DNA of 28,916 nucleotides from Promethearchaeota archaeon (GTDB lineage: Archaea > Asgardarchaeota > Lokiarchaeia > Sigyniarchaeales > SOKP01), in the NCBI GenBank assembly GCA_016839745.1, contig JAEOTS010000072.1, positions 1 through 28,916 of the forward strand, in the 5' to 3' direction. The position numbers and the translations under genes are program-made. How positions within the stretch are numbered: the first letter of the stretch is position 1; every line of letters starts with the position of its first letter. The notes below the pieces were generated by a model that searched no databases, was not told where the DNA came from, and saw only the letters and a list, made by a program, of their open reading frames with translations. Shown here piece by piece: positions 1-24,965 of the stretch.

Positions 1-59
1 ATTTTAAAATCCTTTATAGATAAATTTTCTAAACTAACTTTAAATTCCGATTGTGTCAT
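1..59 (-). CDS. 5' end of an unknown gene running off the left edge (MTQSEFKVSLENLSIKDFK...)
   Basis: ATG at 59-57 with GAGGT SD-like motif at 71-67 (7 nt spacing). The frame is open to the window edge and starts 53 nt downstream of the HgcA-like gene on the same strand. Confidence 0.55.
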   Translation of the reverse strand, partial: MTQSEFKVSLENLSIKDFK

Positions 60-112
60 TATACATACCTCTTATATTTCAATTTCCTTTTATTTTTTTG
101 TATTAATATTTA

Positions 113-1780
113 TTACAGTAAAATGATTCCAAACACCATTGAAATCAAACTAATTGTTAACAAAATTTTGTTTATGAGACTAAAAATTGGATATTCCTCC
201 TGAATTTCACTAGGGCTCGTGGCCATCGTGTAGCCACTTAAAGACATTGTAGAGAAAAATGAAACCCAAAAGAAAAACGCGAAGCTCAATAGCATATAGA
301 TTATTGAATTATGTAGGAAATACGTTAAAACTCCCAGAGCAATAGAATCTAATGTTCCAAAGAAAATCCCTTTATATATGAATCTCCGAGTAAATTTAGA
401 TATAGGAAATAAAAATGTTATTAAAAAATTTGAGCCTATTATCCAAAGTAAGAGTTCACCAGCCCACCAAAATTTATCGAACAACCCAATCAGATTTAGA
501 ACAAAGGAAATCAAGAACAAGGCAATTAAGGGCAATAAAAATATTTTTCTCAGTAGAAAGGTCGTGTGAGTAATAAATCCACGAAAACGATGCTTTAACG
601 TAAATTTAGCAAGTTTCATACTATCCGGTTTTCGAGCAGGTCTATTTTTTATAAATTCAGGTAAGTCTTTAGACCATACTGGTCCAAACACCACTCGGAA
701 GGGGAATTCTTTTGTTTTTTTCTGTAAATCTGGAGTAGCTACGCCTCCCGCAGATAATTGTGGGAGAATTAAAGTTTTTCTCTCGGTTATTTCCGCTAAT
801 CCAGTAGCCTCAACTGCTTCTATTAATTCATTATTCCCAAAGTCGTTTCCTCTTGCAGCACACCACACATTTATCCCATTAGAATCAACACATAACACCC
901 AGGCGTCAAGACCTTTTAGATCTCTCATTACTTTAATAAAAGTAAATTCATAGTTTGCGGTAACAATTATAGGAGAGGTTTTATCAGGATTCCCCGATTT
1001 GTAAAGTCCCGGATCTATTGGAACGAGATCTACTTGTCCGGTATAAATACAACGATATATTCTTAGTTGAGATATTATACCTTTAAATTTTTTTGGTTCA
1101 GGTTGATAATATCCCGGTTCATTGGTTTTTTTATCATCAACCTTAATTAATTCGAGGACTTGAATAGTCCCGTGCTTCCAATCTTCTTTTGCTTTAATTT
1201 TAAATCCAATTGGTTCGATATATCTGAAGAACCATTTTAATAGAAATGTACTCCGCAATTTAAGACGTCTAAGCTTCTTTTTATATCTCCATCGTTTTAA
1301 TTTAAACAATAACTTCCAGAAACCATTAGGTACAAATTCAGCAGCCAATATTAACTGACCATTCGGTTTTAATACTTTCCAAGCATTTCTAAGGAATATT
1401 TGTTGCTCAAAAGGTCGAAGTTCAGATAACATGAATGTACTAACAATTAAATCCTGAGAATTCGCATTCACAGGCATGCTAGTAAACGAGCCCGTCTGGT
1501 ATACAAGTGTACCTTCTTTTAGATCAGAAGGATAGTTCTGCATAGCAAAATTAATCATTTGAAAATTGATATCTAGAGCTATAACATCATTTCCCTTTAA
1601 TGCCATTTGAGAGGCGAAACTACCAGTTCCGCATCCAACTTCTAGGATGGACTTAGATTTGCCAATTTTATCAAGTATCCATTCTCTAACCTCTAGATTT
1701 ACACCCTTTGTAAGTACTGTGAATTTAGAATCATAACTATCAGGCTCTTGCTCTAGTTTACGCATATATACTACTGCCAT
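113..1780 (-). CDS. Fusion of a class I SAM-dependent methyltransferase with an HgcA-like corrinoid (CdhD/E-type) domain and a C-terminal multi-TM domain
   Basis: N-terminal ILEVGCGTG, VIALDIN, DLIVS and VLKPNG are SAM-MTase motifs. The middle carries PGLY..G.PD..SPIIVTANY, GINVWCAARG, LILPQLSAGGV and VVFGPV..DLP.F (HgcA-type corrinoid domain). About 5 hydrophobic helices end in SGYTMATSPSEIQEE, similar to the HgcA C-terminal motif. Likely start is ATG 1780 (ORF track 1789). Confidence 0.88.
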   Translation of the reverse strand: MAVVYMRKLEQEPDSYDSKFTVLTKGVNLEVREWILDKIGKSKSILEVGCGTGSFASQMALKGNDVIALDINFQMINFAMQNYPSDLKEGTLVYQTGSFTSMPVNANSQDLIVSTFMLSELRPFEQQIFLRNAWKVLKPNGQLILAAEFVPNGFWKLLFKLKRWRYKKKLRRLKLRSTFLLKWFFRYIEPIGFKIKAKEDWKHGTIQVLELIKVDDKKTNEPGYYQPEPKKFKGIISQLRIYRCIYTGQVDLVPIDPGLYKSGNPDKTSPIIVTANYEFTFIKVMRDLKGLDAWVLCVDSNGINVWCAARGNDFGNNELIEAVEATGLAEITERKTLILPQLSAGGVATPDLQKKTKEFPFRVVFGPVWSKDLPEFIKNRPARKPDSMKLAKFTLKHRFRGFITHTTFLLRKIFLLPLIALFLISFVLNLIGLFDKFWWAGELLLWIIGSNFLITFLFPISKFTRRFIYKGIFFGTLDSIALGVLTYFLHNSIIYMLLSFAFFFWVSFFSTMSLSGYTMATSPSEIQEEYPIFSLINKILLTISLISMVFGIILL

Positions 1781-1823
1781 TGATATCAATCCTATTTTGT
1801 TTTTTAATGTTTTTTTATTATTA

Positions 1824-2915
1824 TTAATTAGATTTCCAGAAACCTCGTTTCGCTAGGAATTTTCCAAGATATACTATTGCAAGCATAACAGGTACTTCCC
1901 AAAATAAGCCCATTGTAGTTCCTAAAGCTGCAACAGAACCCACTCCATACATAGCGATAGCTGTTGCAATAGCAATTTCAAAGTGACTTGAGGAACCGAT
2001 AATTACTGTAATAACCGCTTCTTTATACTTCATTTTGAAGATTTTTGTAATAAAAACATTGTAAGCAACCACTATAACAAAACCTACTAAGAGTGGAATT
2101 GAGACTAGAAGCAATAAATCAGGATTATTTATAAGAACATCTCCATTTAAAGAAAATAATACAACTAAAGTTGTCAATAAAGCAACAATTGAAATCTTTC
2201 CAACAAATGGTTTGTAGCTATCGTTAAACCACGACAATCCTTTTGATGCGATGATTAATCTCTTGCTTATTATTCCAAGCAATAATGGTATACCAATGAA
2301 GAATATTAAAGAGATTAGTAATAACAGTGAATTAACTGGAATATTCTGTATACCTGTTAATAAAGAGACCATTGCTACGTACAAAAAGATTATTGTTATC
2401 GTATTTAAGCTTGTATTTACTACATTCTGTTCTTGGTTACCCTTCGCCATCCATCCCCAAACTAACACCATAGCCGTACAGGGCGAACTTGAGAGTAAAA
2501 TTATCGCAACTTTTAGTTCAAGTATATCTTTGGCTGTACCAGGTAGAAATATATTAACCATTGCTAATCCCACAAAAGGAGCGACGAGCCAATTAGAAAC
2601 TAATGTTAATATTATAGGTTTTGGGTTTCTCCTTAATTTCTTCAATTCTGATGCCTGTAAATTCAACATTGCAGGATACATCATGAGAAATAGACAAATT
2701 CCTATTGGTATGGAGATCCCCCCTATTTGTAGTGAATTTATCGTTTCGCTTATTTCTGGAACAAACTGGGAGAGAATAATACCTAATAAAATACATAACA
2801 CTACCCAAATAGGGAGAAGCTTCTCAAAATAATTTATCTTTCTTGATTCTTGTTTTGGTTCTTCCGTTTCACTTAGCTTATGAATAGCTCTATTTTCGAT
2901 ATCTTCTTCAACCAT
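1824..2915 (-). CDS. acr3: Acr3 family arsenite/antimonite efflux transporter
   Basis: About 10 TM segments with LFLMMYP, LVSNW, SPCTAMVLVW and GSSSHFEIAIATA..YG motifs typical of Acr3. Likely start is ATG 2915 (ORF track starts at TTG 2981). Confidence 0.93.
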   Translation of the reverse strand: MVEEDIENRAIHKLSETEEPKQESRKINYFEKLLPIWVVLCILLGIILSQFVPEISETINSLQIGGISIPIGICLFLMMYPAMLNLQASELKKLRRNPKPIILTLVSNWLVAPFVGLAMVNIFLPGTAKDILELKVAIILLSSSPCTAMVLVWGWMAKGNQEQNVVNTSLNTITIIFLYVAMVSLLTGIQNIPVNSLLLLISLIFFIGIPLLLGIISKRLIIASKGLSWFNDSYKPFVGKISIVALLTTLVVLFSLNGDVLINNPDLLLLVSIPLLVGFVIVVAYNVFITKIFKMKYKEAVITVIIGSSSHFEIAIATAIAMYGVGSVAALGTTMGLFWEVPVMLAIVYLGKFLAKRGFWKSN

Positions 2916-3082
2916 CTTCAGTACTTCGTATATTTTAATATTTTTGATGTCGAGAGTATGAGATAGAATATTATACTTCAAATTTAAGGTTGTCGATTTG
3001 AACTAAATAAAAGCCTTAAATGTTATAGATTTATATTTATCGATTTATTCTTTATATTTATAATGAGATTAATATAGAAGAA

Positions 3083-3490
3083 ATGAAGGTGTTACTCATA
3101 AAACAAAAAAGATCTTTAGAAATAAAAAAATTATTATGTACATGTAATAGTTGCTCAAATTCAAATGCTCATTTTGAGAACTTACTAGAATTGGGTAAAA
3201 AGCTAGAAGAGAATGAAAATTTGGATGTGATTGAAAGATTTACATCTGCAATTTCATCCAAGGAGCGATTAATCATCATCAATGCTTTAAAGGAACAAGA
3301 CAGATGTGTATGCGAATTAGAAGCTATATTAAATAAGTCCCAATCTACAATTTCTCATCATTTAAGGAAGCTAGTTACAGCCGGTATAATACAAGGATAT
3401 AAAAAGCAAAAATTTACTTATTATCACTTGTTTAAGGAAGAAATAAAGCAATACTTAGAAATTTTTAATCAAGTATTAACTGTTAATTAG
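3083..3490 (+). CDS. arsR: ArsR/SmtB family metalloid-sensing transcriptional repressor
   Basis: RLIII..L, CVCEL alpha3 metal site and SQSTISHHLRKL..AGII HTH. Divergent from acr3; extra N-terminal CTCNSC. Confidence 0.92.
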   Translation: MKVLLIKQKRSLEIKKLLCTCNSCSNSNAHFENLLELGKKLEENENLDVIERFTSAISSKERLIIINALKEQDRCVCELEAILNKSQSTISHHLRKLVTAGIIQGYKKQKFTYYHLFKEEIKQYLEIFNQVLTVN

Positions 3491-3650
3491 ACTATTATGT
3501 TTGGTTGAATAGTATATCAGCTCACAAATTATGATGTAATTCCCCTTAAATTAATAATCTATAAATATTAAATTTAATAGCTAATAAGGTTACTTCGTTA
3601 ATAATTAGAAAAAATTAGTTGTTTAAAGTAATAAAATAGGTTTAAATAAT

Positions 3651-3905
3651 ATGCCGAAACCCGTTCCTGATGATGAGGAAAGTATGAGCGAATGTCGGAA
3701 ATTCTGTGGTCCTTGTCCTTCGTTCAAACCTAATCAATTAAACGAATTTGAGCCACATGCGCTTTTTTGTTCGCGTGGAAAAACTGAAAAACCGATGTCC
3801 GAAGTTAAAAATAATGGTTGTAGTTGCTTTGGTTGTGGATTATTTCCAAAGTACGAACTAGAAGGCGGATTTTTCTGTATGCATGGTACTGGCGGAAAAA
3901 AATAA
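3651..3905 (+). CDS. Small Cys-rich putative metal-binding protein (DUF2769-like)
   Basis: 8 Cys in 84 aa: CxxxCxxCPSF...LFCxxGK...GCxCxxC...FFCxxG, resembling the archaeal DUF2769 pattern. Confidence 0.7.
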   Translation: MPKPVPDDEESMSECRKFCGPCPSFKPNQLNEFEPHALFCSRGKTEKPMSEVKNNGCSCFGCGLFPKYELEGGFFCMHGTGGKK

Positions 3906-3925
3906 AGTAATATTTATCCTACACT

Positions 3926-3938
3926 CTTTTTTTTATTT
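3926..3938 (+). terminator. Probable archaeal oligo-T terminator
   Basis: T-run about 20 nt after the stop of the Cys-rich gene. Confidence 0.4.
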
Positions 3939-4136
3939 AATGCTCAATATTTTTGTAAATTCTTTACCTCTCATTATTTTATTAACCTTTGCTTGTTGAT
4001 CTAAATAATTAAGCTGTTGATATTTTAAATTAAGATATTTAAAAGTGTGAGTTTTTGTCGGTAGATAATTAAACGCTAAATATTTATGTGATTATTGCCA
4101 TGAAAATAATGTTTAAAAAAAATAAATATCAGATAG

Positions 4137-5417
4137 ATGATATACTCTATGGAAGATATGGATAACGATATAGAATTCTCTAAATACTATCGGGTAATTA
4201 CACCAAATGAAATTAACATTGATAGGGAGGAGATTTTTTATAGAGATAAGTATAACGATATCATTAGTTATTTGAAGATTATGTTAACCAACCACGAGGA
4301 TTCGATCACTCAGAGTTATAATAAATTTATTCAGCCAAAAGGTGCTATTCTAATCAATATTAAGTCTGGAACGGATATTGATGATTATTTAAAGCTAATT
4401 TCCAAAAATTATTATCTAAATTTTTATGAACTAAATCAGGAGGAAATCATAAAGGCGCCTGAGGTGTTTATTAACAACTTTACATCTATTCTACAAAGTT
4501 TAATACAAGTTAAGGAAACAAATTCAGATGAAATTGGTGAGGAAACTCAACCAACTGAAGATCAACTAAAAGAAAATAGAATAAAAGGAATACTATTAAT
4601 TAATCAAGAGAATTTTACTAACATCAAATTAAAAAAAAGGAGCTTATTAGAGTATTTTGTAATATCTTTTAAAAATAAAAAGGAAATATTGAAAAATGGG
4701 CTAATTTTAATCTGGATTAACAATGACATTAAAGAGATCGAAGTAAATTCAAGATCAATTTTTGAAGTCTTTGATCTGTTTATAAAAATTCCCCTTTTAG
4801 ATAACATCGAGAGAGAGACGATTTTCAGGAACTTCTCAGAAAAGAATCCGAAAATCGTATTTGACATTAAAACACTAGTAGACTTCACAGTTAATTGGGA
4901 AATAAAGGATATAAATCAATTGCTGAAAGTGGGTATCTTTAAACATTTTCTTAAATCCGAATTAAATGATTCAAGTAATGAAATTACAGATGGATTGATT
5001 GACTTAATAGAATCGGGAGAATTCATTCCTTCCATTTCTCATGAGGAGGTAAAATTGGATTTTTCGAATGATAAAGTAACTGAAAATCAAAACTCATTAA
5101 ATATGAGATTCATGAAGGGAGGAAAAACGGGGATAACAGTTAATGGATCGTCTGAAGTTCTTAATCTAATAAAGCAAGAAAGGTTCTCCGAATTTATGCT
5201 CAACCAATTATATGAAAACGCAGTTTCTAAGAATTATAGTGAGCTCTTACTCATTATTGATAAATTAAATAAGCAGGAACTATTAGAAGAAAATGATAGA
5301 AAACTACTAGCAAAATACGCTTTTATTCTAAACGATAGTCCAAAAATGGCTCAAATTAATTTAGAAAAAGCAAAAAAACGTATAGATAATTTAAAGCGAG
5401 CTTTTGGAAAAAAATAA
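4137..5417 (+). CDS. Degenerate (Walker A/B-inactivated) classic-clade AAA+ fold protein
   Basis: QPKGAILINIKSGTDIDDYLKLIS aligns by eye with PKGhLLxGPPGTGKTLLAKAhA. ILLINQE sits at Walker B and LILIWINN at sensor 1. FDLFIKIPLLDNIERETIF resembles FDRxIxIPLPDxxxRxxIL, and DIKTLVDFTVNWEIKDINQL resembles the lid DLxxLAxxTxGxxGADIxxL. Confidence 0.65.
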   Translation: MIYSMEDMDNDIEFSKYYRVITPNEINIDREEIFYRDKYNDIISYLKIMLTNHEDSITQSYNKFIQPKGAILINIKSGTDIDDYLKLISKNYYLNFYELNQEEIIKAPEVFINNFTSILQSLIQVKETNSDEIGEETQPTEDQLKENRIKGILLINQENFTNIKLKKRSLLEYFVISFKNKKEILKNGLILIWINNDIKEIEVNSRSIFEVFDLFIKIPLLDNIERETIFRNFSEKNPKIVFDIKTLVDFTVNWEIKDINQLLKVGIFKHFLKSELNDSSNEITDGLIDLIESGEFIPSISHEEVKLDFSNDKVTENQNSLNMRFMKGGKTGITVNGSSEVLNLIKQERFSEFMLNQLYENAVSKNYSELLLIIDKLNKQELLEENDRKLLAKYAFILNDSPKMAQINLEKAKKRIDNLKRAFGKK

Positions 5418-5435
5418 TATAATGGGTGACAATGA

Positions 5436-8400
5436 ACGGCTACTTCCTCTAAAAGAAAGGTAAAAGAAATAATTGAAAAAAAACCTAACGAGAATGGTAT
5501 ATTTCTTCGCAAAGTTATATTAGAAAACTTTTTATCATTTCAAAGAGACGAAGTAGATTTTTCAATTCAAGAAAACCAAGATCCTCCTCGTTTTATTTTA
5601 ATCATTGGACCAAACTGGAGCGGGAAAACATCAATTTTTCAGGCTATTAAATTTGCTTTAGGGAGTAATGAAAGAGACGAACGTTATAAAAAGTGGTCTG
5701 ATTTTATTAGAAACGGTCAAGCTCATGCTATGGTTGAACTTCATATTCAGTACCATGGTGAAATCCTTAAAGTAAGAAGAACTGTTATAAGAGGAAAATC
5801 TCCTTTTTTCGAAATTCAACTTAACCATGACCAGAATTTTAAAAAAGTTCATGTGAATGAAATTCAAAAACTTATTACTGAGTTAGAAATTAATCCCGAC
5901 AATCAATTCGCGTTTGTAAGTCAAGGTAAAATCGATGCAATTAAGAATTTAAAACCTATCGAGTTATGTTCATTTTTAGAAGAAGGTATTGGGCTTAAAG
6001 GTCTCAGAGAGGAGATACTTCAACAAAAAAAAGGTGTTTTATCTTTAGATATAGAATTTCAATCACTAGTAACCAGAAAAAATACATTAAATTTTAACTT
6101 GGATATATTAGCACCAAAGTTAGAACGGCTTAATGAGAAAAAGAAATTATTAGATATCAGAAATAAATATACTGATGAATTGTTATGGGCTAATAAGGAT
6201 GTTCTACAAAAAGATATTGAGAAATTGGAGTTATCCTTCAAGGAGAGCCAAAACAAAATAAACTCTATAACCAAGGAAACTGGAAAATACCGAAGTTTAG
6301 TTAAAGAAAAAGAAAGAATAATTATTGAAATAGATAACAACCTTAATAATGCATCAAAAAAAACGGGAGAATTAGAATATAAAAAAAAAGAACTAGTAGA
6401 AAAAATTGATGCTTGGCAGAAAGAAAAAATAATAGCAAAACAAGAATTGGATGAGTTATCAGCAAAAGTCTCGGAAATAGAAAAGGTTGTAGATAAATTT
6501 AACAGCCAAAAGCAAAACTTGGAAAATGAAATCAAAATAGTTAACAGAAAGAAACAATCTGTAAAGAGCGACATTGACAAATCGATTAAAGAACAAAATG
6601 ATCTTATAAGAATGATCAAAGAGAATGAAGCTTTCTTAGAAAAATATAACAATTTAACTAATGAAAAAGAAGGATATTTAAGAACTATCCAAGAGAATGA
6701 AAGTAAAATTGAAAACACCAATAAAGATATCAACGACATATTTCAAAGTTTGATGGACATTGACCACAAACTAGAAAAAAATAAATGGTTCTTAGAAAAT
6801 CCTTCAAACGATTTATTGAAGCAATTAGATACTGATCTAAAGAAAGTTACCGTAAACTTACTAAATTTTGGAGCTGAAATCGAGCAGTTAGAATACAACA
6901 AATCGAAAAAGATGCAAAAGTTTAAAGTACTACAAACAGCATTAAGAGAACGAAAAATCGTTTTGTCACCCAATATTAATGTTCTCAAAGAAGAAATTAA
7001 GAAAAGAGAATTAGAGGATCGCGTTAAAGGTCCAATAATCGAGTATTTAAAATATGACGATGAGTTAAGCTACGCAATTGAATCGGTTTTAGGAGAGCGG
7101 CTACTTAATAGTTTTATTGCGAGCGATTGGGACACATTAAACTTATTAGAGAGATTAAAAAAGAAATATAATGCTTATTGTAATATCTATATTCCAAAGA
7201 AGGTAAATGTTACTCCCTTTCCAAAAATTTCAGCTGCAGGAGTAATAGGTTATTTAGCAGAATTAATTAAAATTATTGATGACGATGTAAATGTTCAAAA
7301 AGTTATTTATTCGAAGATTAAAAATTGTCTTGTTGTTAAAGATAATCTCTCTGCAAAAGAGCTTTATAAAACAAGAGCTTTCAAGGGTAAGTGTGTGACT
7401 CTACAAGGTAAACAGATAATATCGTATAAGTATGTATATGAGAGTCCTCATATAAAACGACTTAAAGGTTTATTAAGCGCAGGGACTCAAAAGGAACAAT
7501 CTGAACTGGTAGAAAAAGAAATTAAATCGTTAAATGATAAAATATTAGAATTAAAAGTGAATCAAGCAAAATTTGAAAAGCTTCAAGGTGAGATTTTTAG
7601 AAAAAAAGAATCATTTACTGACCTTTTGTTCAATTTCAAGCACAAAGAAAGGTTAACTTCAAAAAAAAATCAATTATATAATCAGATTTATTCATTAGAA
7701 CAAAAAAATGGAGAAATTAAAGAAGACATTAAAGACCTCACGAAAAAAATCAAAGATTTTGAGTCTCAAAAAGAGCCTGAATTCTTCGATTGGAACAATA
7801 GAGTAAAGGAAATTCCAAACGAACTAAACAATTTAAACAATGAACTAAAAAAATGGGATAAAAAATTAAATGATAATCTAGAATCATTAAAGGAAATCAA
7901 TGATAATATAAATTTTAATGAAAACAATTTAAGCATAGTTAAACTAAATTACGATGCGAAAAAAACTGATTTCCAGAAGTCAGATAAAAAGGCATTTGAA
8001 ATTTATAGAAAATTAGAAAATTTGGAAGATGAGATTCTATCAATTAAGACAAAAATCTCTAAATTGCAGGACCGAAAAGTAATAACACAGAAAGAGAAGC
8101 GCGAGATAGACCAAGCTCATATTCAAGTAAAACTAAGCTTAGAGCAAGAAATTTTTAAGCAATCTTCAATAAAACATGAATTAGGGATGAAGAAGGAAGA
8201 TCTAAACCGCATTTTATCTGAAATTGGGCAATATATCGGAGAAGAAAAAATAACAGTTCGCCCAATAGAAGATATTAATAGAGACGTACTAAAAATTGAT
8301 AAAGAACTTTTAAATTATTTAGATGTCGACGATTCACTTTTAATAGAAAAAGAACAGATGATTACAGGTTTAAAAGAAATTACAAAAAATCAGAAAGAAT

Positions 8401-8927
8401 TAGAAAGAGACATAAAGGCAGCTATTAAAACAGAAAAAAAATTGGAAACCACATATTTTGATAAGTTTCAAATAGTTCTTAAGGAATTAAATTCTAAAAT
8501 CAACCAAAAATTTAACTCCGCAAATATTAAAGCTTATTGTACTCTTGAGATAATAGGAAATTTTGAAGAATTGGGTATAGATATCAAGGCTGCGATCTCA
8601 AAAGACCAGTTAAAATCTTGTACAGCCTTAAGTGGTGGTCAAATTTCAATGATTTCAATTAGTTTAATCTTATCTCTTCAAGAAATTAAACCTTCGCCAT
8701 TATGTATGTTTGATGAAGCCGGAATGTTTTTGGACGATAAGAATTCAGAAGCTTCGTATCATATGATAAAATCTACTTTAGAAAACAACTCTATTCAATT
8801 ATTAATGTTTCTTCCAAAATCATCAAATGCGTTATATTCACTCGCAGACAAGTTAATTGGAGTTGCAAGAGTTGGCAAAAAAGAAGTATCTACCATATTT
8901 AAACCTAAAATTTTAAAAGAAAGATAA
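5436..8927 (+). CDS. smc: SMC family ATPase, non-canonical/SMC5/6-like (~1163 aa)
   Basis: The frame is open from 5436 and encodes LRKVILENFLSF and Walker A GPNWSGKT (5607-5630) upstream of the ORF-track start at 5730. It has Q-loop FVSQG, long coiled coils, hinge VKGPIIEYL...AIESVLG, signature LSGGQ and Walker B/D-loop CMFDEAGMFLD. The start codon is uncertain. Confidence 0.92.
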   Translation, partial: TATSSKRKVKEIIEKKPNENGIFLRKVILENFLSFQRDEVDFSIQENQDPPRFILIIGPNWSGKTSIFQAIKFALGSNERDERYKKWSDFIRNGQAHAMVELHIQYHGEILKVRRTVIRGKSPFFEIQLNHDQNFKKVHVNEIQKLITELEINPDNQFAFVSQGKIDAIKNLKPIELCSFLEEGIGLKGLREEILQQKKGVLSLDIEFQSLVTRKNTLNFNLDILAPKLERLNEKKKLLDIRNKYTDELLWANKDVLQKDIEKLELSFKESQNKINSITKETGKYRSLVKEKERIIIEIDNNLNNASKKTGELEYKKKELVEKIDAWQKEKIIAKQELDELSAKVSEIEKVVDKFNSQKQNLENEIKIVNRKKQSVKSDIDKSIKEQNDLIRMIKENEAFLEKYNNLTNEKEGYLRTIQENESKIENTNKDINDIFQSLMDIDHKLEKNKWFLENPSNDLLKQLDTDLKKVTVNLLNFGAEIEQLEYNKSKKMQKFKVLQTALRERKIVLSPNINVLKEEIKKRELEDRVKGPIIEYLKYDDELSYAIESVLGERLLNSFIASDWDTLNLLERLKKKYNAYCNIYIPKKVNVTPFPKISAAGVIGYLAELIKIIDDDVNVQKVIYSKIKNCLVVKDNLSAKELYKTRAFKGKCVTLQGKQIISYKYVYESPHIKRLKGLLSAGTQKEQSELVEKEIKSLNDKILELKVNQAKFEKLQGEIFRKKESFTDLLFNFKHKERLTSKKNQLYNQIYSLEQKNGEIKEDIKDLTKKIKDFESQKEPEFFDWNNRVKEIPNELNNLNNELKKWDKKLNDNLESLKEINDNINFNENNLSIVKLNYDAKKTDFQKSDKKAFEIYRKLENLEDEILSIKTKISKLQDRKVITQKEKREIDQAHIQVKLSLEQEIFKQSSIKHELGMKKEDLNRILSEIGQYIGEEKITVRPIEDINRDVLKIDKELLNYLDVDDSLLIEKEQMITGLKEITKNQKELERDIKAAIKTEKKLETTYFDKFQIVLKELNSKINQKFNSANIKAYCTLEIIGNFEELGIDIKAAISKDQLKSCTALSGGQISMISISLILSLQEIKPSPLCMFDEAGMFLDDKNSEASYHMIKSTLENNSIQLLMFLPKSSNALYSLADKLIGVARVGKKEVSTIFKPKILKER

Positions 8928-18587: not shown

Positions 18588-20936
18588 TTATGCGTGACAA
18601 AGTCGCTTAAGTAAAGTTGGATCAACTATTTCTTTTGGTTTCCAACCTCTTTGTTTTAAGAAGTCTACAATTTCGTCTTTCATGTTAATAGGAATATCCG
18701 CGTCCACTCGAATAAATTTTTCTAAATCGTTTGGAAAGTCTACCCCTTTATATTTTCGTTCTAAGTCTATCCAGTGCGATAGTTTAATCATTCTACCTTT
18801 TGAGTTATCTGCAGGTCTTAAACACATTTTAGCTACCAAACAAATTGCTTGCTCTATCGATTCTGCTGTAGTTAGTAAATGTTCAGGCCCTGGTCCAACT
18901 AAATGGTCGGCTGTTCCGTCTCTTGCGTTAAAAACTTTCCACGAATCTTCGTTATCAGATCGGCCTATATACGCACGCCGATATTCTGCAGCATGTGGAC
19001 CCACTACGGCAGGAACACCTAACCCATTTGCCATACTTGCTATACTGGCTGCTTTTTGTGACATTGCTCCCCATGCTACACCCACAGCTCCAACCCTATG
19101 CAATATATAATCAGAGATTTCTTCGAAGTTACCCCTTAATGGCCGTCTTGCAAAAATATTCGCCACTTTTATCGCTGCACCCGTAATGTGTGGATTTGAA
19201 ACGCAAGAACCAACATTAACTAAGCCTCCTCTATCAAATTCTCCAGGGAATCTATCATAAAGCGTCTTACCCTCTTCATCTTTCACTAAACCGATATCCA
19301 TGGCTCCACATCCTGAAACTACTACAATGTAATTTCTTACGCAGAATTCTTCAGCTAGCTTATATAGTTCTTGGATATCCTTGCCATAACTAGCGCATCC
19401 AATAATCGCAACTATCCCGGGTATCTCTCCAAGTACTATCGGAGCTCCGACATTTCGTATTTCTGTATCTTGAATTGGACCTCTTCCAACTCTGACATTG
19501 TATTTCTCATTTCTGATTTTATCCCTTCCCGCATACATTATTAGCGTTAATGGTGATACATCTTTCATACAATCAGCTTCACAGCGTCCACAATCTAGAC
19601 AATCGTCAAAAACTTTCTCTAAAACGGAAAAATCACCTTCTTTAGCTAGGTTTACTCCTTCAACAAGAGGTAAATCGTTAGGACAATTACGTTGGCAATT
19701 TCCGCAGCCATTACAATTGTATGCCATTTTAATACAGCCTTCCTCGTCGGGAATACCACTTCGAGATTTTCTAATTGGGTGGACTTTAACTGCCGTTTCA
19801 ACAGCTACCTTTCCTGCCTTTATTGGATCTAAAATTAGTACTCCATCCATTTTACCACTAACTAAATCGTCTATTATTTCTTCAGCAGGATCGTTCGTTC
19901 TATTTGGTAAACCTCCCATATTTTTTTCGTTAGTAGCAATAAATGGAGATCCTACTAGTTTAGCTTGCTCAAAACTGCGAAGATTGACACACTGTTCATC
20001 GACCATGACTACATCTGCCAAACCAGAGCGGATGAAGTGCATTTGTCTAGACATTGAACCAATAACTTTGGCTCCATCGTAATATCTGGTTAAATCTAAA
20101 GCAGTACAACAAATTGCTCCCACATCTATTTTGTCTCCTAAATTTTGTTCACGCATATAATCAACAAGTTCTACTCCAGGAGCAACATTGTGTCCTATCA
20201 TTAATATTGTTGCTTTATTTTCGACATCCATGGTTCCCATACCTAATTCTACAACGGGAACATCAGGATCTCCTGCAGGGAATCCATACGCAGCAATTTG
20301 AACGGCGTCTGATATCTCCATACCAACCGAATCTGCTAATCCAGCAAGAAAACTTTTAGCCTCGTAATCTAAATGAGATGATTCTTGTCCTGTGTGACCT
20401 GATGCGAGTAAATGAGTAATGGTATAATGTACCCATTCCATTGCTGTTTCCAAATCTTCTAATGTTTCAGGTTTCATACCAACAACTAATCGAGTATGAG
20501 GCATCTCAACGGCAATGTTATTACCAAAATTTATTGGAACATTCCCATATTTCTCTTTAAGCCAGTGAAGTAAGTGATCTCCATGAGCTGAATGACAAGA
20601 AGCTCCTATACAACAAGCAATTTCTACTATCCTTGCTTGCTGTGTTTCCATGTTAATTCCACAAGCACCTGTTCTACCCTTCGAAAGATTACATTTTCCG
20701 TACGTACAAAGACAACACATGTCACAAATAGGCATATAGTACGGAGGATATCTATCCATGAGTTTAAAGAACCAATCTCGCAATGTGGGAATATGAGGTT
20801 TAGGGGTTGGCCCCATTGGTTCCCATTCTGTTTCGTCGCCCCAGCTTATCTTACCAGTAGTTAATTCAAAGCCTTTGATTGAACCTAAAGGTCCTTTGTA
20901 TTCATCTATTTTTATTCTAGCACCTTTTTTACTCAT
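18588..20936 (-). CDS. cdhA: Archaeal CO dehydrogenase/acetyl-CoA decarbonylase/synthase complex alpha subunit
   Basis: CDMCCLCTYGKC..GACG; C-cluster ligand motifs GHN, ICCT, DEQC, GCA, SGCG and GSCV; two ferredoxin motifs CNGCGNC..CP and CLDCGRCE..C. Likely ATG at 20936 (track 20945). Confidence 0.95.
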   Translation of the reverse strand: MSKKGARIKIDEYKGPLGSIKGFELTTGKISWGDETEWEPMGPTPKPHIPTLRDWFFKLMDRYPPYYMPICDMCCLCTYGKCNLSKGRTGACGINMETQQARIVEIACCIGASCHSAHGDHLLHWLKEKYGNVPINFGNNIAVEMPHTRLVVGMKPETLEDLETAMEWVHYTITHLLASGHTGQESSHLDYEAKSFLAGLADSVGMEISDAVQIAAYGFPAGDPDVPVVELGMGTMDVENKATILMIGHNVAPGVELVDYMREQNLGDKIDVGAICCTALDLTRYYDGAKVIGSMSRQMHFIRSGLADVVMVDEQCVNLRSFEQAKLVGSPFIATNEKNMGGLPNRTNDPAEEIIDDLVSGKMDGVLILDPIKAGKVAVETAVKVHPIRKSRSGIPDEEGCIKMAYNCNGCGNCQRNCPNDLPLVEGVNLAKEGDFSVLEKVFDDCLDCGRCEADCMKDVSPLTLIMYAGRDKIRNEKYNVRVGRGPIQDTEIRNVGAPIVLGEIPGIVAIIGCASYGKDIQELYKLAEEFCVRNYIVVVSGCGAMDIGLVKDEEGKTLYDRFPGEFDRGGLVNVGSCVSNPHITGAAIKVANIFARRPLRGNFEEISDYILHRVGAVGVAWGAMSQKAASIASMANGLGVPAVVGPHAAEYRRAYIGRSDNEDSWKVFNARDGTADHLVGPGPEHLLTTAESIEQAICLVAKMCLRPADNSKGRMIKLSHWIDLERKYKGVDFPNDLEKFIRVDADIPINMKDEIVDFLKQRGWKPKEIVDPTLLKRLCHA

Positions 20937-21023
20937 CCATTTCACTTCTTTTTTTATAATATAGATCAGAATAATGATTCTTTGTTATAAAAGTCTAATT
21001 AAACGCAAATATAAGTGTTTAAT

Positions 21024-23575: not shown

Positions 23576-23669
23576 ATTTTTTTCACATTTTGTTTTTGTT
23601 AATATCTTTTTGATTTATATTTTTAATTATGATAGATTCTATATTCTAAGTAAAACAAGATGTTTTTAT

Positions 23670-24965
23670 GTGTTAGCTTTGCGAAAAAAAGTTGCATTTG
23701 TAGTTTTTTATCAGAAACAAAATATCTACAGCTTTAATGCGCTAATTGCTGCTATAGAAACGAAACACAAACTAAATGACATTGAAGTTTTCTTTATTCG
23801 TGGTTATGAGAACCTCTATAACGATTTAGAAAAAATAAAAGATTCTCACAGAAGTACTATATTAGGGATCTCCTTTTTTACTACTCAATTATGGGAGATC
23901 AGAGATTTAGTCAAATCTTTACGAGACAAATATAAGGATAGTGTAATATTTATTGCAGGAGGACCACACCCAACTGGAGATCCCGAAGGAACTCTTAAAA
24001 TGGGTTTTGATTTAGTTGTGAGGGGAGAGGGGGAAGAAACTTTAATTGATATTCTTTTTAACATTAAGAATAATAAAGACTATAATGATGTTAAAGGAAT
24101 TGCTTATTTAGGGAAAGATAATAAACTAATTTTAACTAAAAAGAGGAAATGGATCGATTTAAATAAATATCCTCCTTTACCAAGTAAACACATTAAATAT
24201 GGAGCTATTGAAATAACTAGAGGTTGTCCTTATGTGTGCTATTTTTGTCAAACACCTTATATTTTAGGAACCGTTCCAAGACATAGAAGTATCAAATCTA
24301 TATGTGGTGCTGTTAGGATTATGAAGGAATATGAGAAAACTGACATTAGATTTATAACTCCTAATGCCTTTTCTTATGGTTCTCATGACGGGAAAACACT
24401 TAATCTTCCCGAATTAGAACGATTATTAATTAATATTAAAAAGATAGTTGAACCTGAAGGGAGGATTTATTTTGGATCTTTTCCTTCTGAGGTTAGACCT
24501 GAGCACGTAACAGAAGAAACATTAGGATTAGTTTTAAAATATGCTGCTAATGACAACATCGTAATTGGTGCTCAATCTGGGAGTCAAAAGATATTAAATT
24601 CATGTAATAGAGGCCATTCAGTTGATGATGTTTATAATGCAGTAGAATTAACAATAAAAACTGGGCTAATCGCAAATGTAGACTTTATTTTTAACTTGCC
24701 TAATGAAACCGATGATGATATAAATCTTACTATACATTCTATGAAGGAGTTGTCAGATATGGGAGCAATAATACATACACACTCCTTTATGCCCTTACCA
24801 CTTACAGCATTTGCAAATGAAACTGTAAAAGAAATTGACGAAAAAACTAGAAAGATCATCTCAGAATTAAGCTCAAAAGGATTGGCTTACGGAGATTGGA
24901 AAAAACAGGAAAAAGTAGCAAAAAATATAGCCAGTTATTTTAAATTGAAGAAATTAAGCGATTGA
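23670..24965 (+). CDS. B12-binding domain radical SAM protein (TIGR04013/MJ1487-like)
   Basis: AGGPHPTG and VRGEGE (B12-binding domain), EITRGCPYVCYFC (CxxxCxxC), RFITPNAFSYGS and FPSEVRPE. Start is probably GTG 23670 or TTG 23679 (track 23610). Confidence 0.88.
   Translation: MLALRKKVAFVVFYQKQNIYSFNALIAAIETKHKLNDIEVFFIRGYENLYNDLEKIKDSHRSTILGISFFTTQLWEIRDLVKSLRDKYKDSVIFIAGGPHPTGDPEGTLKMGFDLVVRGEGEETLIDILFNIKNNKDYNDVKGIAYLGKDNKLILTKKRKWIDLNKYPPLPSKHIKYGAIEITRGCPYVCYFCQTPYILGTVPRHRSIKSICGAVRIMKEYEKTDIRFITPNAFSYGSHDGKTLNLPELERLLINIKKIVEPEGRIYFGSFPSEVRPEHVTEETLGLVLKYAANDNIVIGAQSGSQKILNSCNRGHSVDDVYNAVELTIKTGLIANVDFIFNLPNETDDDINLTIHSMKELSDMGAIIHTHSFMPLPLTAFANETVKEIDEKTRKIISELSSKGLAYGDWKKQEKVAKNIASYFKLKKLSD

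Follow-up and report, generated by a model that had tools for sequence, protein, structure and literature searches.

A methyltransferase-HgcA-like fusion protein behind acr3 in an Asgard archaeon: a conserved layout that suggests B12-based methylation of arsenic or a similar metalloid

HgcAB is the enzyme pair behind environmental methylmercury, and its natural function is debated. What, then, is a relative of HgcA doing directly behind an arsenite efflux gene in an archaeon? The question is raised by the first 28.9 kb of contig C38 (JAEOTS010000072.1), a stretch of 28,916 nucleotides which we call the window, from a genome of 3.5 Mb that is 89% complete; the closest protein matches of the window are labelled Lokiarchaeota or Promethearchaeota, which agrees with the Asgard host proposed in an earlier reading of the DNA alone (the sequence-only reading). 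On the minus strand, in 5' to 3' order, lie acr3, a 43-nucleotide spacer, a gene for a 555 amino acid fusion protein, a 53-nucleotide spacer and an HgcB-like gene, and the conservation of this layout suggests B12-based methylation of arsenic or a similar metalloid. The account which we favour, and put forward tentatively as possible rather than probable, is that these genes would form one metal(loid)-controlled operon whose products pass a methyl group from S-adenosylmethionine (SAM) to a corrinoid and on to a soft metal(loid), arsenic or antimony being favoured by the context.

The fusion gene occupies positions 113-1780 of the minus strand, from ATG 1780, 43 nucleotides past the acr3 stop codon, to the TAA at 113-115, and its product joins a CpaM-like SAM methyltransferase to an HgcA-like corrinoid domain and a membrane domain. 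Residues 1-215 (1136-1780) were assigned as a class I SAM methyltransferase domain on their invariant SAM residues and structural neighbours; their best family match was CpaM (NCBIfam NF043040; 138.8 bits, profile positions 2-213 of 216), with the runner-up methyltransferase family at only about 50 bits and a weak likeness to the TehB and ArsM models. Residues from about 250 to 390 (611-1033) make up the HgcA-like corrinoid-binding domain, with the cap helix NVWCAARGN and Cys307 (codon 860-862), and residues from about 395 to 554 (119-598) the C-terminal membrane domain of long helices, recognised from an AlphaFold2 model and the HgcA profile alignment. Taken together, residues from about 250 to 555 matched HgcA (NF040863) with 191.4 bits and HgcAB_like (NF043039) with 182.9 bits, the C-terminal region aligning along the full HgcA model, and Pfam returned Methyltransf_11 and CdhD for the protein.

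The AlphaFold2 model was confident for the whole protein (predicted local distance difference test, pLDDT, 90.6; predicted template modelling score, pTM, 0.87) and has a domain of Rossmann type, an alpha/beta domain of corrinoid type and, at the C-terminus, five long helices (residues 395-430, 439-456, 467-490, 493-514 and 523-554). Its top Foldseek match was an integrative model of HgcAB (9a0b_A), followed by SAM-bound small-molecule class I methyltransferases. By sequence the corrinoid domain matched the gamma subunit of the corrinoid iron-sulphur protein (CFeSP; 2h9a, E 5e-10), and the search of solved structures gave just CFeSP and generic methyltransferases, with no experimental HgcA structure among them. 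Asgard relatives of the protein are 63-93% identical to it, and among 66 fused homologues from archaea and bacteria both G49, G51, G53, D70, D110, E120 and E148 of the methyltransferase and N304, V305, W306, C307 and A309 of the cap helix are invariant. There are four cysteines, C50 (in the SAM motif GCGTG), C244, C297 and C307 (in the cap helix), and the methyltransferase domain, whose sole Cys is that of GCGTG, thus lacks the As(III)-binding cysteines of ArsM, as the sequence-only reading had observed; it scored 32 bits with the ArsM model (NF008823) against a cut-off of 263, where a true ArsM from a related locus (L020) scored 347.

Judged by its sequence the fusion protein is not a canonical HgcA, because it falls below the NCBIfam cut-off, has the variant cap helix NVWCAARG and groups apart from the canonical sequences; its place is in an uncharacterised CpaM/HgcAB-like branch of the HgcA superfamily, as a divergent member. 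It scored below the respective cut-offs for CpaM (138.8 against 180 bits), HgcA (191.4 against 275, with 435 bits for a canonical control protein from D. caledoniensis, L086) and HgcAB_like (182.9 against 285), the last match stopping at profile position 262 of 350 and the ferredoxin being unfused. It nevertheless has the C-terminal multi-helix membrane domain and the adjacent HgcB-like ferredoxin gene expected of HgcA, and the class I SAM motifs (GxGxG, D70, D110, E120, E148) and in-frame fusion to an HgcA-like domain expected of CpaM. In the cap helix NVWCAA and its Cys are kept but the GK of NVWCAAGK is replaced by RG; all of the unfused HgcA sequences collected (41 of 41) have NVWCAAGK(G), and nearly all methyltransferase-fused forms lack the cap-helix Lys, with one bacterial exception (L026). 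In an unrooted tree of 90 HgcA-like domains from a quick maximum-likelihood search, canonical HgcA formed one clade and the Asgard group of the window protein another, each with a support of 99 in the Shimodaira-Hasegawa-like approximate likelihood ratio test (SH-aLRT).

CpaM, "corrinoid protein-associated methyltransferase", is an uncharacterised family named by NCBI annotation only (NF043040); a literature search on it gave unrelated acronyms and no describing paper, and no paper was found that ties Lokiarchaeota HgcA-like genes to a methyltransferase fusion. Both components of CpaM and HgcAB-like (NF043039) systems recur in the window: a SAM methyltransferase of class I, and a corrinoid protein of HgcA type whose cap helix has NVWC. 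Elsewhere these components are two adjacent genes on a deltaproteobacterial chromosome (L042; 264 and 386 bits, above the cut-offs) and are fused in Chloroflexota (L028; 280 and 285 bits) and also in Poribacteria, the fusions of both phyla reaching the CpaM and HgcAB-like cut-offs. Because the methyltransferase and corrinoid parts are fused or adjacent across lineages, they probably work together. Unlike those systems, the window protein lies under all three curated cut-offs, belongs to an Asgard clade of its own and stands in an arsR/acr3 operon setting, and unlike the HgcAB-like fusion its ferredoxin is encoded by a separate gene.

The likeness to HgcA and HgcB, for example of Pseudodesulfovibrio mercurii ND132, lies in the corrinoid domain with a cap-helix Cys, the C-terminal membrane domain, the downstream 2x[4Fe-4S] ferredoxin with a terminal Cys pair and the neighbouring ArsR-family regulator, whereas the extra N-terminal SAM methyltransferase of 215 amino acids and NVWCAARG in place of NVWCAAGK set the window protein apart. 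A non-canonical "fused HgcAB" clade has been described that includes Thor- and Lokiarchaeota together with Pyrococcus furiosus (Lin et al. 2023, PMC10083202); unlike that clade, the Asgard genes analysed here have an unfused HgcB, and their extra part is an N-terminal methyltransferase. That study discarded the first 327 columns of its alignment because they aligned poorly, and the methyltransferase domain may have gone unremarked for this reason. There is also a likeness to ars operons with ArsM (arsR-acr3-arsM), in which ArsR is likewise divergent and the gene behind that of the Acr3 pump likewise codes for a methyltransferase. The methyltransferase of the window, however, is without the ArsM cysteines and is tied to a corrinoid protein and to a ferredoxin.

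The partner of the fusion protein is encoded at the very edge of the contig. A gene beginning at ATG 59 (59-57) on the minus strand, 53 nucleotides past the fusion gene and with a GAGGT Shine-Dalgarno-like motif 8 nucleotides upstream, is cut by the contig start after 19 codons (1-59), and its product, MTQSEFKVSLENLSIKDFK (19 residues), is identical at 16 of 19 positions to the start of the ferredoxin encoded behind the orthologous fusion gene on a Lokiarchaeota contig (L002). Full-length orthologues of this 2x[4Fe-4S] ferredoxin have two CX2CX2CX3CP motifs, a GCGC motif and a C-terminal Cys pair (CC or CxC), and their top NCBIfam match is HgcB (NF040864) at 49-55 bits, under the cut-off of 99, the window copy itself consisting of 19 codons only. 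The gene which the sequence-only reading had left to be identified beyond the left edge, with hgcB, arsC and arsA as candidates, is therefore most probably an HgcB-like ferredoxin gene and not arsC or arsA, and it would complete an HgcAB-type pair; the pairing of the HgcA-like and HgcB-like proteins is predicted from homology and synteny. A search of the other contigs with the L002 ferredoxin did not find the rest of the gene, giving generic ferredoxin domains at no more than 36 bits.

In relatives a small protein is encoded after hgcB (L002:8141-8539, L003:8025-8294, L013:8054-8344, L020:8744-9133), with an invariant YVPL-x-x-C-x-C-x-W, a core of about 90 amino acids that is 55-61% identical across loci and, in some copies, a Cys-rich N-terminal tail. 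No family was found for the small genes behind hgcB in relatives when they were searched against Pfam. The protein may serve the module as a metal(loid) chaperone.

Upstream of the fusion gene, acr3 (1824-2915, minus strand, stop codon at 1824-1826) encodes an ACR3-family arsenite efflux permease of 363 amino acids, which matched TIGR00832 over profile positions 2-325 of 327 with 269.7 bits, marginally under the cut-off of 282.8, and Pfam SBF with 127 bits but the BASS model with only 30 bits. A Cys in the P-C-T-A-M-V motif and a Glu in F-E-(I/L)-A-I-A are essential in Acr3, and the translation contains both, as SSPCTAMV and HFEIAIA. The start of the gene is most likely ATG 2915 rather than TTG 2981 of the mechanically called open reading frame, because orthologues align from about residue 23 of the TTG frame and a conserved box overlaps position 2981.

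Are these genes likely to be transcribed together? The coordinates bear out the co-directional string of acr3, methyltransferase-HgcA-like gene and further gene behind a divergent ArsR gene that the sequence-only reading had described, with arsR on the plus strand (3083-3490) and acr3 on the minus strand, and the other observations which it made on the letters themselves hold as well. The spacers between acr3 and the fusion gene (1781-1823, 43 nucleotides) and between the fusion gene and the hgcB-like gene (60-112, 53 nucleotides) are, as it had said, A-rich on the coding strand (63% and 58% A respectively); their longest T run is 2, and neither has a hairpin terminator. A scan with bacterial-type models gave no terminators and 19 promoter-like sites against 22 expected, such models being uninformative for an archaeon.

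The arrangement is conserved well beyond this genome, which disposes of the possibility raised beforehand that the arsR-acr3-(methyltransferase-hgcA-like) linkage is unique to it. The fusion was present in 174 of the 400 Asgard genomes searched, including 106 of 134 in the family of the window genome and 34 of 41 in its genus, and several genomes carry two fusion genes. Among the best species-level loci acr3 was directly upstream on the same strand in 21 of 29 (16 of 17 within the genus), at a distance of 24-55 nucleotides from the fusion in the 21 orthologous loci, and the hgcB-like gene came next in all 27 loci that reach far enough, with a spacer of 38-55 nucleotides in 25 of the 27 and no T run longer than 3 in any. 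The order acr3-fusion-hgcB with a divergent arsR was found in long contigs labelled Loki- and Heimdallarchaeota, and these share as flanks the divergent arsR, a protein of 410-430 amino acids that belongs to no known family and an SMC-like gene. As the same flanking pair occurs under both labels, the neighbourhood is probably old and syntenic.

Around this core the loci vary. One (L020) carries a bona fide arsM between acr3 and the fusion (347 bits against 263), a second (L013) an arsC-like gene just downstream, and in a third, from a Promethearchaeum metagenome-assembled genome (L018), thioredoxin and DsbD-type genes are inserted. In some of the loci that lack acr3 the arsR gene is directly divergent from the fusion, sometimes with an EamA-type permease after hgcB, and in one subclade a MarR regulator takes the place of ArsR.

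Some further variants were recorded. A DUF166 gene is often first in the operon, before acr3 (about 11 of 29 loci; for example L003:4155-4898 and L020:3948-4694); it is weakly similar to the model of the DUF166 (seleno)protein DfsP, is absent from the window and persists as a remnant in L007. In L016 a MetF gene and its MetV-like partner (3896-5524, minus strand) are divergent from the fusion and replace arsR and acr3, which hints at a link to one-carbon metabolism in that lineage. The Thorarchaeota loci L021-L025 have a second fusion paralogue, about 31% identical, with arsR directly upstream on the same strand and hgcB downstream, an arrangement known from Pseudodesulfovibrio hgcAB.

Evidence for common control comes from the region upstream of acr3 (2974-3046, minus strand), a putative operator/promoter region with two direct 20-nucleotide boxes, AAATCGAYAANNWTAAATYT, at 2980-2999 and 3027-3046. 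No other match occurs in the window, where chance alone would give 0.15, and these two were the only exact matches in the 3.5-Mb genome; a genome-wide search for the box gave nothing outside the locus, two sites with one mismatch being within the count of a reversed-pattern control. The proximal box lies inside an inverted repeat with 10-nucleotide arms (2974-2983 and 2996-3005, 90% complementary) and has 14 invariant positions in 10 aligned orthologous spacers, whether the first gene is acr3, DUF166 or the fusion. A conserved operator-like box before whichever gene comes first supports common control, and we infer that the loci may share one homologous promoter, guarded by a repressor, and that acr3 and other cargo genes were inserted downstream of it, ahead of the fusion.

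To what would such a promoter respond? The ArsR/SmtB-family regulator (3083-3490, plus strand) matched HTH_5 with 63 bits and NF033788 with 68.9 bits, above the cut-off of 55, and it carries a CVCE motif and an N-terminal Cys cluster, LCTCNSC, with C21, C75, V76 and C77 invariant in 13 orthologues. Its nearest solved relatives are CadC proteins (Lmo1102; pI258 CadC, 1u2w), which are cadmium/lead sensors. The CVC is invariant, there is no third helix Cys and an invariant N-terminal Cys is found instead; the third Cys of the classical site of plasmid R773 ArsR is thus absent here. The predicted sensor site, CVC plus the N-terminal Cys, appears closest to the alpha3N sites of CadC type. The label "arsenic-responsive", which the sequence-only reading had given to the operon, was taken from the family name; as the sensor site appears CadC-like, arsenic is no more than a candidate inducer.

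On the account that we favour, the operon would consist of acr3, the cpaM::hgcA-like fusion, the hgcB-like gene and further small genes beyond the contig edge, from a promoter guarded by the divergent ArsR-family repressor. A thiophilic metal(loid) binding to the Cys site of ArsR would take the repressor off the two boxes and the operon would be transcribed. The membrane-anchored HgcA-like domain would hold the corrinoid beneath its cap-helix Cys307, where the HgcB-like ferredoxin would reduce it to Co(I), and the fused class I methyltransferase would bind SAM and load its methyl group on Co(I) to give methyl-Co(III). From there the methyl would go to a soft metal(loid) bound to the vicinal cysteines in the tail of the ferredoxin. 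The substrate would most likely be As(III) or Sb(III), favoured because acr3, arsM and arsC are recurrent neighbours, with Hg(II) as the alternative, and Acr3 would export the unmethylated oxyanion in parallel. The window also encodes a CdhA-type carbon monoxide dehydrogenase and a B12-binding radical SAM enzyme, which speaks for corrinoid use in this organism. A survey of cold seeps has covered acr3 and arsM of Asgard archaea (PMC10060404). Work on other systems speaks for the proposal: diverse bacteria have acr3, arsC, arsM and arsR beside hgcAB (PMC7438021), purified HgcAB takes its methyl group from SAM and not from methyl-tetrahydrofolate (PMC11588087), and the hgcAB genes of ND132 are controlled by an ArsR-like regulator that responds to arsenic and to S-adenosylhomocysteine (SAH) (bioRxiv 10.1101/2022.10.17.512643).

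Several points weigh against arsenic methylation by this route, or against the operon as drawn. Chemically, SAM can methylate As(III) without a corrinoid. Of the 107 fusion-bearing genomes of the family 35 also have ArsM, at least two of them in the same operon as the fusion, which counts against a simple replacement of ArsM. The sensor site of ArsR seems as CadC-like (Cd/Pb/Zn) as ArsR-like, which weakens the case for arsenic as the inducer. T5-T8 runs, potential archaeal terminators, occur in 7 of the 21 acr3-fusion spacers (those of more distant orthologues), and about half of the wider orthologous loci lack acr3, some having a MarR regulator. Canonical HgcAB takes the methyl of SAM without any methyltransferase domain, so the role given to the fused domain is inferred and not required. 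Finally, the sole tested member of the non-canonical clade, the fused HgcAB of P. furiosus, does not methylate Hg (cited in PMC10083202), which leaves the whole non-canonical branch with no known substrate.

The "ArsM-independent" part of the sequence-only reading stands only for the window genome, in which (89% complete) no ArsM above the cut-off was found, and does not extend to the family as a whole. A replacement of ArsM shown by complementary distribution was also considered and rejected, ArsM being present in 33% of fusion-bearing and 46% of fusion-lacking genomes of the family, percentages in which the related genomes are not independent.

Could the corrinoid serve a reaction unrelated to metal(loid) methylation, such as halomethane dehalogenation or methylation of an organic acceptor, with the regulator sensing for example SAH and acr3 a passenger? 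Heterologously expressed HgcAB has been reported to dechlorinate carbon tetrachloride (CCl4) (bioRxiv 10.64898/2026.04.26.720869) and the ND132 regulator is also SAH-responsive (bioRxiv 10.1101/2022.10.17.512643), and the many orthologous loci without acr3, some of them with MarR regulators or MetF/MetV neighbours, would fit such a function. Against this, 21 of the 29 closest species have acr3 next to the fusion, others have arsM or arsC, the regulator keeps an invariant Cys-based metal site, and vicinal Cys are abundant in the ferredoxin tails and neighbouring small proteins; we regard this explanation as unlikely.

Somewhat less likely again is that the locus encodes a working mercury methylase, with a fused methyltransferase that serves only for efficient SAM loading and ars genes that are there because the type of regulator is shared. 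The cap-helix Cys, the membrane domain, a ferredoxin with a C-terminal Cys pair and an ArsR neighbour are all features of hgcAB loci (PMC11588087; bioRxiv 10.1101/2022.10.17.512643), and Asgard archaea are counted as putative methylators in sediment surveys (PMC12484752). Yet the HgcA score of 191 against 275 bits, a position outside the canonical clade and the replacement of the cap-helix GK that is kept in 41 of 41 canonical proteins speak against it, as does the failure of the only tested non-canonical relative to methylate Hg (PMC10083202); moreover, the window contains no mer genes and the neighbours are arsenic genes.

A more direct route, in which the N-terminal methyltransferase is the terminal enzyme and transfers methyl from SAM to the metalloid as ArsM or TehB would, leaving redox, anchoring or delivery to the corrinoid and ferredoxin, is improbable: the domain is a complete class I methyltransferase with conserved SAM motifs and some weak likeness to TehB and ArsM models, but it has no substrate-binding cysteines, its sole Cys being in GCGTG, its best family by far is CpaM, which is defined by association with corrinoid proteins, and the cap-helix Cys and corrinoid domain are conserved as strictly as the methyltransferase. 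That the genes are mere neighbours, separately transcribed and with no functional module, is very improbable, as the T5-T8 runs in 7 of 21 distant acr3-fusion spacers and the archaeal promoters that AT-rich spacers could hide are set against an order, strand and 24-55-nucleotide spacing kept in 21 loci, an hgcB spacing kept in 25 of 27, an upstream box retained where acr3 is absent, and window spacers free of T runs.

If the SAM-to-corrinoid-to-metal(loid) account is extended to the whole family, there would be a second, B12-dependent methylation of arsenic or antimony in Asgard archaea and some Chloroflexota, the HgcA family would originally have served metalloid detoxification, and a derived branch would methylate mercury as a side reaction; this extension we consider doubtful. 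What can be said of more immediate use is that a branch of the HgcA family is widespread in the archaea closest to eukaryotes, in most close relatives within an arsenic-type efflux operon setting, and that its locus makes the native role of HgcA experimentally approachable, arsenic or antimony rather than mercury as the substrate being a directly testable hypothesis. As independent evidence from genomes, the methyltransferase fusion also supports the view that the family takes its methyl groups from SAM. Surveys that score every Asgard HgcA-like match as a "mercury methylator" may be counting a different enzyme, and if arsenic methylation proved true, anoxic sediments would have one more source of methylated arsenic, independent of ArsM.

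Beyond arsR, 160 nucleotides downstream of it on the plus strand, lies a gene (3651-3905) for a Cys-rich DUF2769 protein of 84 amino acids with 10 cysteines (PF10967, 41.8 bits against a cut-off of 22.8). The DUF2769 gene adjoins arsR also in L007, L013 and L106, so it is possibly part of the module, and the protein possibly binds metal.

The operon's neighbours on the same side are a 426 amino acid protein that matches no family (4137-5417, plus strand) and an SMC-like protein of 1065 amino acids (5730-8927, plus strand), in which the hinge domain alone was detected. Farther along, a CdhA-type carbon monoxide dehydrogenase (CODH) subunit of the Prismane/CODH family with an inserted 4Fe-4S dicluster domain (18588-20945, minus strand) sits in the only stretch of raised GC content of the window (0.38-0.40 against about 0.30). 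A CdhD-like match on contig C180 indicates further corrinoid proteins in this organism, and the window itself has one more corrinoid-dependent enzyme, a B12-binding radical SAM enzyme with B12-binding and Radical_SAM domains (23610-24965, plus strand).

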